A stretch of DNA of 38,396 nucleotides from a virus (taxonomy: Duplodnaviria > Heunggongvirae > Uroviricota > Caudoviricetes). Positions 21,001-24,000 of the stretch are shown in pieces (position 1 is the first letter of the stretch; every line of letters begins with the position of its first letter). The DNA lies in the IMG/VR virus record IMGVR_UViG_2675903536_000019. The stretch is one strand, 5' to 3'. The position numbers are program-made.

Positions 21001-24000
21001 CTGTGAATTGTGGCTGAATCTGCGGCTGCTGTTCGGTTTGTGTTGTTTTTCCCTGGCTGAAATAGCAGTCTTCCAGTTTTTCGAACACTTCCCATGCCTG
21101 ATCAGTTTCGAGCATTTTTGCGTGACGGGCTGCCCCGCGTTCTGTCCAGAGGATGAGGTGCTTTGTACGCGGTGCAACTAAGTTACTTTGAGTAACCTTG
21201 TTCTTAAATTCCCGCAATCCAGCCCCTTCCAATTTGAAGTAGTGTTTCCCACAAACAAAACGCTCGGCATTGCGTGTATAGTTCACTTTGATGTTATTAG
21301 TTTCGGTGCCATAAAGTTGTGCCAAAAGCTCGGTGGTAATAACAGGAATCTGGTTATGGGTAATCGGGGAGATGGTTTCAACAGAGATTTGAGTTGTCAT
21401 AATGACGCCCTCTAGTGGTTTCTAAACTATCACCACCGTAAGGTTCCAATCATCGGGTGGTGAGACGCACAGGGTTGGAACTACCGGGAAACCGACCGGC
21501 GAGCTTTTCAGCTCCCCCATGCGCCCCACCATAATTCAGATGTGCGCGTGCATACGACAATAAAAAACACGCTCGCGGCGTGTGTTTGTCGCGGTCTCTA
21601 TCCGGGGTTCCAATCCCGACGGCCAACTCGACCGTGCGAAGAATATAATCCCGGATAAGTGTTGTCGTCAACTCAGCATTGATGTTGTATTAATTGACAA
21701 CGCTATGCACTGTTGTTATCCTTAACAACATAAATACACGGAGTTTTTATGCCATCCAGACTGTATAAAGAGTTCATTCGCCATCTTGGGGAATCCGAAT
21801 ACATAAGGATTAAAATCTGGGAGGTGGCTCCAGCCGTTCTTGGTAGCCGCCATAACTTCAAATACAGCATGGCTTACGTTGTTGATGGTGTTTGCGTCAT
21901 GCGCTACGACAACGAAAGAGGTAAAGGCGACCACAAACACATTGGTGCTCAGGAAATCAGTACCCACTTTGTTTCCATCGAGCAACTCATTGCTGACTTC
22001 CTCCATGATGTAGAATCCATTCGCAGAGGTGCCTGATATGAAAACAGTTACAATACGTATTGAATCAATGGATGCTTTCACGGCAGATGTGTTGTCTGCC
22101 TTTAAAGCGGTTGCCGAAGGAATGACGTCAAAGAACGAAAGCATCGTTTCATTCCCAGACTGGCAAATGATGCATAAAGTGCTTACCCCTAAGCGCATGG
22201 ACATACTCATGGCGATGACTGGTGCCGGAGAACTGTCAATCCGTGAGATTGCCGCTCTGGTCGGGCGTGACGTAAAAGCCGTACACACGGATGTAACCGC
22301 ACTGATTAGCAACGGCCTCCTGGAAAAAGGAGAAAATGGAACATCTTTTCCGTATGACGACATCCACTTTGATTTTACGCTGGGTAAAGCTGCGTAAAAT
22401 TCACCGCGCCGTCATTCTGGCGGCGCTTTACCCCAGAGAAATATCAATCACCGGATTGCCACATCCCACTCCGGCTCCTGCCATCTCAAATCCGGTGAAT
22501 CATTTCTCGCCGGAATAACCATTACGTCCTTTTCCCTCCGCTCCCTTTCTATCGCCATCACAGCCAATGCTGCAACCATGATGTATTTTTGCTCGTCGGT
22601 TCCCGTTTCATAACGGTGCATGAGGGTAAACTCGGGGCGATCAGTAACCTCAATGATTTCGTTAATTTCTTTAATTTCGAGAGGAATATTGATTTTGTTG
22701 TTCACGTCATAACCTCAATATTAAAAATTCGTTAACATTAAATTTTGAATACCGGATGTTTACCCGTGTCCGGCGCACGACCTCACGTTGCAGCGTGAAG
22801 GTCTCCATTTTTCAAAACAGAGCAACAATGGAGGATAAATGGACAAAAAACTCAATCAGGCTCGCTGGAATTTTCATTACGAAACAGCCCGCTCAAATTA
22901 CTTTCTTGAATGCTTCGGGGACTCTCTGGCTATTAAAGAGGGGTATCCAAGGACTATTTATGGCTTTGACGCAATATATCTTTATCTTGCCGGAAAATAC
23001 GGATGGACTATTGCTCAGTGTCGTTCAATGTCGACTGAGGACATTCGCCTTGCTCTCGCAACAGAGCTAGAAGCATGGACACCCCCTCAAGATGTGATGA
23101 TTGATGAGTGTCTCTCCCGGAATGATTGATGTTGTTAAACTCAAATATCTTGCTCCTGGCAATAGCCTCAACGGTATTCCAGAATACCGATGGTTCTGTT
23201 TTCTGCTCTGTTTTATCAGCAGCAGAAAGTAACGTTTCTGCGCCTTTCTCAAATTGTTGTTGATACTCATCAAGCCAGGTCAGATCAGGAGTAATTCGTA
23301 CCAGTTCGAGTGAATATTCCATGGCATCCGTCATGTATTCTTTCGGGATGCCATTTTCTTCAAGAATTTCCTCAACCTTCTGGCGAATAACCGGAACCAG
23401 GAAAAGCAGTTTTGTTTCACGATAGCCAAGTAGTTTTTCCAGATCGCGAACAGCCTCTTCTGTCTGGCGCTTGCCCATCATGGATTGATGCTCTTTATTC
23501 AAATGCATGTTTAGCTCCTGTTAAGCCAATACACGGCTATGCAGACTGTTATTTGCCTGTGCGCAACGTCTATAGAATGCCAGCACACGCTGCATTGCTT
23601 CACTGTTACGGCACTCGCGACAAATTGTGTTGTAGCGTCTGTCGTAGCGCCGTATTTCCCCATCGGGTAATGCCCGGATAAGACCGGGATCAACGACAAC
23701 CGGTTTCTTTGCCTTTGCTCTCGAGAGTTTTTTGCGGGCATTTTGCCAGTCCTTACGCGCCTGCTCAGACGGGAATAATCCGTAACCTGAATTGTAAACA
23801 TCACCACTTGCGACCAGTTCTCTGGCGAGAGTGTTTATGTAATACCTTGATGCACCAGTTTTAGCTTCCAGAGCCCGTAACGTCTCACGTCCACTCTGGC
23901 GCACAAATTCAACGATCTGCTCCTTAATTTTTTCCCGCTCTTCGGGTGTAAATACTTTTGCCATAAGCTCTCCAGTTATCACTTTTCCGATGCAATACTG

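Follow-up and report, generated by a model that had tools for sequence, protein, structure and literature searches.

A probable TumE–TumA toxin–antitoxin module of a short-toxin-first sub-type in a variable slot of an Stx1c-converting prophage

We analysed a plus-strand two-gene cassette, tumE–tumA, in a 38,396-nucleotide stretch of Caudoviricetes DNA (IMG/VR virus record IMGVR_UViG_2675903536_000019; this whole stretch is called the window below) and find that it is probably a type II toxin–antitoxin (TA) module of the TumE–TumA superfamily, belonging to a short-toxin-first sub-type with a 119-amino-acid (aa) HVO_A0114 partner. Over the 1.1 kb around the cassette that was searched, the window is 100% identical to Escherichia phage phiSTEC1589-Stx1c, and is therefore a Stx1c-converting lambdoid prophage, where Stx denotes Shiga toxin; the same prophage, with stx1c on board, is found in E. 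coli ST866. Both cassette genes are already named by automatic annotation (RefSeq/PGAP), whereas the operator code, the specificity residue 79 of TumA, the obligate pairing of the two genes and the TA slot in Stx phages are new.

The cassette had been described in an initial annotation of the window as a self-contained pair of plus-strand genes, and both genes are real, the first of them confirmed at 95 aa. The open reading frames (ORFs) and their Shine-Dalgarno sequences, the latter read from the sequence, are as follows.

21740–21743, plus strand: Shine-Dalgarno GGAG for tumE, 5 nt before the ATG
21749–22036, plus strand: tumE (ORF1), encoding a 95-aa putative toxin (Pfam PF20126), assigned from the Pfam match, the alignment, the AlphaFold2 model and the ratio of non-synonymous to synonymous substitution rates (dN/dS)
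22026–22029, plus strand: Shine-Dalgarno GAGG for tumA, inside the end of tumE and 8 nt upstream of the ATG
22038–22397, plus strand: tumA (ORF2), encoding a 119-aa HVO_A0114-family winged-helix protein, a putative antitoxin and autorepressor

The length of 122 aa first given for ORF2 had to be revised, as the GTG at 22029 lacks a usable Shine-Dalgarno sequence, whereas the ATG at 22038, which yields 119 aa, is the start used in GenBank and by PGAP and is the position at which the N-termini of homologues (M-x-T-V-T-I) align. With tumA starting at this ATG, the stop and start codons are adjacent rather than overlapping (TGAtATG; the TGA at 22034–22036 and the ATG lie 1 nt apart), so that the overlap on which translational coupling had been proposed disappears, while coupling itself stays plausible. 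Strong purifying selection is seen in both genes, with a dN/dS between two alleles of 0.07 for tumE and 0.065 for tumA; the GC fraction of the cassette (0.453 versus 0.49) gives no foreign mark.

ORF1 matches the Pfam family TumE/DUF6516 (PF20126) with 53.7 bits against a cut-off of 23.4 (E = 2e-14), covering profile positions 6–81 of 81, and the same domain is present in all 160 homologue clusters. A search of 1.84 billion representatives gave about 1,048 clusters at the 50% identity level with a match to TumE at E ≤ 1e-3. RefSeq/PGAP names the protein 'toxin-antitoxin system TumE family protein' in 18 E. coli genomes, while the GenBank phage record lists both cassette genes as 'hypothetical protein'. 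A search of the NCBIfam hidden Markov models returned no TumE model match, although PGAP uses the name, and PADLOC-DB 2.0 gave 0 matches for TumE. The window TumE retains all 16 columns that are invariant among 35 diverse homologues (H35, K38, Y39, Y53, D54, N55, E56, G58, K59, G60, D61, H62, H64, F74, L80 and F84), an invariant core that includes H35, K38 and Y39 together with the stretch Y53-D-N-E-R-G-K-G-D-H-K-H64. Its AlphaFold2 model (predicted local distance difference test, pLDDT, 95) shows six strands in antiparallel arrangement with a single helix at the C-terminus, and a search of the PDB with TumE found no structural relative. Apparent 'long-form' TumE relatives among the 50% representatives were set aside, their N-terminal extensions being unconserved and probably the product of mis-called starts.

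ORF2 matches the Pfam family HVO_A0114 (PF25212) with 86.3 bits against a cut-off of 27.6, and is named 'HVO_A0114 family putative DNA-binding protein' by RefSeq/PGAP. Its AlphaFold2 model comprises an N-terminal beta-alpha-beta unit (residues 1–40) followed by a winged helix-turn-helix (wHTH; residues 42–112), in which V79 heads the predicted recognition helix. Structural comparison of this model with Foldseek retrieved MarR/ArsR/CggR repressors at E ~2e-3, a generic likeness only, and PADLOC returned only Csa3/CasR models at E ~1e-6, over generic wHTH regions. Many NCBI records label winged-helix HVO_A0114 homologues of 113–122 aa 'glycosyl transferase family 1', evidently a propagated annotation error.

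Neither family had been recognised in the initial annotation, where gene order had suggested a toxin-first type II TA pair or an abortive-infection module. The profile and structure searches now supply the family, TumE–TumA, and favour the first of these proposals: a TumE/DUF6516 protein is followed by an HVO_A0114 winged-helix partner, and TumE–TumA pairs have been shown experimentally to be TA systems (PMC10584680).

The pairing of the two genes is tight and widespread. Among the 80 best genome loci encoding a TumE relative, 79 carry an HVO_A0114 gene directly 3' of tumE on the same strand, as do 70 of 71 IMG/VR viral contigs, and both unpaired tumE loci (of 151) are contig ends; the pairing of TumE with HVO_A0114 is obligate. 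By record title, the genome loci belong to Alpha-, Beta- and Gammaproteobacteria, Desulfobacteraceae, Nitrospirota and Holophagales. The distances between tumE and tumA cluster at -19, -3, +2 and +5 nt.

Upstream of tumE lie a promoter, as had been described (TTGACA-17-TATCCT, scoring 10/12 and with the same geometry across the family), and two palindromes that we regard as candidate operators.

21683–21702, no strand assigned: operator O1, a 20-bp palindrome, TGTTGTATTAATTGACAACG, overlapping the -35 hexamer
21694–21699, plus strand: -35 hexamer TTGACA, inside O1
21711–21730, no strand assigned: operator O2, a perfect 20-bp palindrome, TGTTGTTATCCTTAACAACA, overlapping the -10 hexamer, 28 bp from O1
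21717–21722, plus strand: TG-extended -10 hexamer TATCCT, separated from the -35 hexamer by a 17-bp spacer

A single match to the promoter consensus is not above chance (4 sites in 3 kb, with 4.9 expected). The hexamers, however, recur at fixed positions within the operators, TTGACA matching at ≥5/6 letters at O1 positions 12–17 in 34 of 35 related loci and a -10-like hexamer standing at O2 positions 7–12 in 30 of the 35, and for this reason we consider the promoter a conserved part of the module. Both operators follow the pattern TGTTG-N10-CAACA, of which they are the sole two matches in the 38-kb window, and an E. coli allele of 78% identity keeps the operator half-sites while its spacers have diverged. 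Paired 20-bp palindromes 27–29 bp apart occur in 35 of 81 loci under a strict rule, versus 3 of 3,691 control windows, and this layout is conserved across phyla.

In some lineages, both operators carry TGATG/CATCA arms instead. A single alignment column of TumA, residue 79, separates the two operator classes: every one of the 14 loci with TGATG arms has F there, and every one of the 50 with TGTTG arms has V or I. Taken together, there is good comparative evidence that TumA binds the predicted operators and would repress its own operon, as is usual for type II antitoxins, which act through operators at the promoter of their own operon.

The distance between operators and coding sequence differs among lineages. 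At 25 non-enteric loci (e.g. L025, L037, L047 and L063), the last base of the second operator is the A of the tumE ATG, and a -10-like hexamer lies 7 nt upstream of that ATG, which implies that the mRNAs of these loci are leaderless. The enteric alleles, the window included, have a leader of 14–26 nt with a Shine-Dalgarno sequence.

The cassette occupies a slot whose borders are shared with related phages that carry other genes there.

21654–21672, no strand assigned: left junction, GATAAGTGTTGTCGTCAAC, common to phages with other cargo, containing the -35 of the neighbouring isrK/C4/antirepressor promoter
21673–22402, plus strand: cassette-specific DNA, 730 bp; sibling Stx phages are homologous up to 21672 and again from 22403
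22406–22426, plus strand: hairpin GCGCCGUCA-UUC-UGGCGGCGC followed by UUUA, a probable weak terminator and the right slot junction

All annotated neighbours of the plus-strand cassette lie on the minus strand, in line with the opposed orientation noted at the outset: to the left are two antirepressor genes and ninB, and to the right an 85-aa gene, a 166-aa gene, DUF977, DUF1627, a dnaC-like gene and O. The cassette had been placed in the nin region, a location that can be given more sharply as the point where the replication module meets the antirepressor/nin genes. A survey of neighbour strands at related loci, which used crude ORF calling, is suggestive only.

On the plus strand, the hairpin has a 9-bp stem, a folding energy of -16.5 kcal/mol and a z-score of -4.0, whereas on the minus strand it is unremarkable (-12.1 kcal/mol, z = -0.08). 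It is common to Shigella phage POCJ13, E. coli JNE120442 and the allele of E. coli RMDEC465, and while a hairpin downstream of the genes is present as had been reported, it is shared with sibling phages bearing other cargo and is not private to the cassette. The minus-strand terminators that were thought to flank the insertion call for a correction: the left one (21583–21567) is the terminator of the IsrK small RNA (sRNA), about 90 bp from the boundary, and the right one is the same shared hairpin read on the strand where it is unremarkable.

Other TA genes take the place of tumE–tumA in sibling phages. The slot cargo of POCJ13 is a Gp49 (RelE-superfamily) gene with an HTH_3 gene, and that of JNE120442 a RelE/ParE toxin with a HigA antitoxin; in PA2-like Stx2a phages, which have the left junction in common with the window, the genes are ParD-like, 93-aa and HigA-like. 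The hairpin is present on 21 IMG/VR contigs, of which 5 hold TumEA, 14 a POCJ13-type pair and 2 a JNE120442-type pair. We found no earlier description in the literature of this slot, between the -35 of the isrK promoter and the hairpin, as a hot spot.

Two further observations concern the slot itself. Phage vB_EcoP_phi346 has, at 3726–4703, a ParD-like gene, a 93-aa ORF (phrog_9924) and a HigA-like helix-turn-helix gene; the 93-aa ORF, lying between two antitoxins that have been termed 'orphan antitoxins' in PA2-like phages (PMC12502783), could be an unrecognised toxin. Part of the left junction, GTGTTGTCGTCAAC at 21659–21672, forms a short palindrome, GTTG-N4-CAAC, whose half-site is that of the TumA operators; phages without tumEA have it too, and it may be a coincidence or an aid to recombination.

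The cassette is rare and variably present. It was found in 1 of 50,697 phage records and in 1 of the 132 phage records with the same flanks, as well as in 18 of 5,426 complete E. coli genomes, 9 of them with the same flanks and 9 with the 78% allele. RMDEC465, the single genome with this allele that was examined, carries it in an unrelated lambdoid prophage, where it again runs against the neighbouring genes and is accompanied by the same hairpin; we conclude that the cassette behaves as a mobile, autonomous unit, i.e. a moron. The moron architecture proposed in the initial annotation is borne out by the conserved promoter and operators of the cassette, by its patchy presence in phages and E. 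coli genomes, by the other TA cassettes in the same slot of siblings and by the orientation of the 78% allele against the grain in its unrelated prophage; neither protein falls into a core nin-region family, and the cassette is not invariant in related phages.

From these data, the following mechanism can be proposed. The sigma-70 promoter would express both genes in the lysogen, independently of the phage early operons, and TumA, as a dimer and probably together with TumE, would bind O1 and O2 over the -35 and -10 hexamers, limiting its own transcription, with residue 79 of the recognition helix predicted to read the central base of each operator half-site. TumA may neutralise TumE by direct binding, probably via the variable first 40 residues of its chain. 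Should the supply of TumA cease, be it through loss of the prophage or through the shut-off of transcription by an infecting phage, free TumE would block translation, its likely activity being that of a nuclease with the invariant His/Asp/Glu/Lys cluster.

The superfamily to which we assign the pair, TumE–TumA (DUF6516/PF20126), was defined by Durairaj et al. (Nature 2023, PMC10584680). In that study, six gammaproteobacterial DUF6516 toxins arrested the growth of E. coli and were counteracted by their cognate TumA, and the TumE of A. tepidum, the only one for which this was shown, inhibited translation, reducing 35S-methionine incorporation (PMC10584680). The validated pairs belong to subcluster 1a, in which the toxin is usually downstream of its partner; their synthetic toxin fragments measured 398–461 bp, corresponding to ~115–135 aa, and their partners ~75–110 aa (PMC10584680).

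Several points weigh against assigning the window pair to this superfamily as a TA module. Its toxin is only 95 aa long and comes first, and its partner is a 119-aa HVO_A0114 wHTH protein; the pair is a different sub-type from subcluster 1a. Our literature search found no experimental work on the short-TumE/HVO_A0114 sub-type, and because of this we infer the toxicity of the window TumE, its neutralisation by TumA and translation as its target from family homology, the biological role being likewise inferred. The AlphaFold2 model has six strands and one helix, whereas the family fold is described as an antiparallel sheet of seven strands that carries two helices and lacks a confident match in the PDB (PMC10584680), and the RNase activity proposed for TumE is unproven even in validated members (PMC10584680). 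The association of residue 79 with operator class reaches p = 5e-11 in a Fisher test on distinct sequences, a value that is uncorrected for phylogeny. Finally, the U-tract after the hairpin is poor, with only UUUA, and does not make a textbook terminator. A search of the literature on HVO_A0114, DUF6516 and Stx1c with TA yielded nothing beyond the 2023 TumE–TumA paper.

If the cassette is a TA module, its role may be addiction or selfish persistence, in which post-segregational killing would stabilise the prophage or the module itself and confer no anti-phage benefit. This role is possible, though we advance it tentatively. Such killing is the classic behaviour of type II TA systems, and the movement of the cassette as a unit between unrelated prophages and its rare and patchy distribution speak for it, but an integrated prophage is seldom lost, which leaves the selective value of addiction doubtful.

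A role in anti-phage defence, by abortive infection or superinfection exclusion protecting the Stx1c lysogen, is compatible with the same TA mechanism, and we consider it slightly less likely than addiction and, like it, less likely than not. In such a scenario, an incoming phage would stop host transcription, TumA would decay, and TumE would kill the infected cell. It is favoured by the nature of the cassette as an accessory prophage gene pair with its own promoter, by the interchangeable TA cassettes that sibling phages hold in the slot, a situation resembling the P2/P4 defence hot spots, and by the presence of TumE relatives on 71 IMG/VR viral contigs. However, PADLOC-DB holds no match for TumE, no link of TumE or DUF6516 to defence was found in the literature, and most of the TumE relatives that we found lie on bacterial genome contigs; the abortive-infection alternative raised in the initial annotation gained no support from either search. 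A more far-reaching proposal combines a TA/defence exchange site at the slot with abortive-infection immunity conferred by TumE–TumA on Stx1c lysogens, and with a fold and a H...YDNERGKGDHKH catalytic core of TumE that are unlike those of solved nucleases; this combination we hold to be distinctly unlikely, and it is less likely again, within that proposal, that O1-bound TumA also tunes the antirepressor promoter, prophage induction and Shiga-toxin release.

It is improbable that the genes form no TA pair at all, with HVO_A0114 an ordinary transcription factor and the TumE-like protein its non-toxic co-regulator or ligand-binding partner, acting on phage or host genes. The window TumE is shorter than the validated toxins and DeepFRI predicts DNA binding for many family members, both of which would suit such a function; the Pfam TumE match, however, runs the full length of the profile with a score comfortably above threshold, TumE has an invariant core of polar residues (H/D/E/K) as enzymes typically do, operator-like sites occur within the 38-kb window at the module's own promoter only, and bona fide TA families fill the same slot in sibling phages.

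A link between the cassette and prophage induction is suggested by the features that adjoin the left junction.

19834–20478, minus strand: second antirepressor gene, Bro-N/P22_AR_C
20735–21400, minus strand: antirepressor gene, ORF6N/P22_AR_C
21453–21536, minus strand: C4-type antisense RNA (RF01695), between the minus-strand promoter and the ORF6N antirepressor gene
21562–21635, minus strand: IsrK-like sRNA (Rfam RF01394), likewise between the minus-strand promoter and the ORF6N antirepressor gene
21671–21642, minus strand: isrK/C4/antirepressor promoter, TTGACG-18-TATATT, with its -35 as CGTCAA at 21666–21671

The IsrK-like sRNA, the C4-type RNA and the antirepressor together resemble a control module of the P1 immI or Gifsy IsrK type, whose promoter stands back to back with that of tumE (-35 hexamers at 21666–21671 on the minus strand and 21694–21699 on the plus strand). 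O1 (21683–21702) is 11 bp from the -35 of this divergent promoter, and TumA bound there might modulate antirepressor expression, and hence induction and the release of Stx1c. Such coupling is highly improbable: the 78% allele in the other prophage has no adjoining isrK promoter, and sibling phages place other cargo at the same position, so that the juxtaposition of the promoters looks like a property of the slot and not of TumA.

We dismiss the idea that the plus-strand ORFs are open by chance and that the real gene is a 213-aa minus-strand ORF (21722–22363) running with the grain. Two relatives share an uninterrupted copy of that frame with the window, but L005, L009 and L056 do not, and it matches no Pfam family, whereas the plus-strand frames have strong family matches and the low dN/dS given above, and are therefore taken to be real.

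Some further features of the window were recorded. Immediately upstream of the second antirepressor gene is an Rfam match to sRNA-Xcc1 (20521–20611, minus strand; 68.6 bits, cut-off 53), so that each of the two antirepressor genes seems to be preceded by a small RNA of its own. Downstream of stx1cB, the STnc100 sRNA family is present in two tandem copies (15583–15796 and 15858–16069, minus strand; 198 and 139 bits), which overlap short 'hypothetical protein' coding sequences of the phage record. A 96-aa plus-strand ORF (22839–23126) lies in the interval that separates the 85-aa gene from the 166-aa gene, both on the minus strand; with no family and no PHROG match, and unannotated in the phage record, it is probably no gene.

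Through this assignment, two 'hypothetical' genes of an Stx1c-converting phage gain a putative function, and the short-TumE/HVO_A0114 sub-type emerges as a tightly coupled module across phyla with a readable regulatory code, made up of two operators and one specificity residue. The slot in Shiga-toxin phages is a site of TA cassette exchange; if its cassettes do affect superinfection, prophage stability or induction, they would have a bearing on the spread and expression of stx.

Among known systems, the window pair is closest to TumE–TumA, with which it shares a TumE domain above threshold, a two-gene operon with a small DNA-binding partner, and, as far as the model shows, an alpha+beta fold without a solved relative, though with six strands and one helix in place of seven and two; the operators and the phage context of the present sub-type are absent from the paper that defined the superfamily (PMC10584680). 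HigB–HigA and Gp49–HTH_3 pairs are alike in having the toxin first and a helix-turn-helix antitoxin second, in similar gene sizes, and in their occurrence in sibling slots. The window TumE nevertheless shows neither sequence nor fold similarity to RelE/HigB, which sets it outside the RelE/ParE superfamily, and TumA is a winged helix of MarR/ArsR-like type and not, as HigA, a Cro/C1-type HTH_3 protein. The Csa3/CasR and MarR/ArsR regulators resemble TumA in the generic DNA-binding domain only: TumA has no CARF or ligand-binding domain, and all of these matches fall below family thresholds. As a genetic unit, the cassette is comparable to phage morons, being an autonomous promoter–genes–hairpin unit that runs against the flanking operons; its own promoter, its variable presence and a probable terminator in the form of a strong hairpin with a weak U-tract all agree with this class. 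Lambda-type morons and the P2/P4 hot spots likewise hold alternative cargo between conserved flanks, as does the slot described here.

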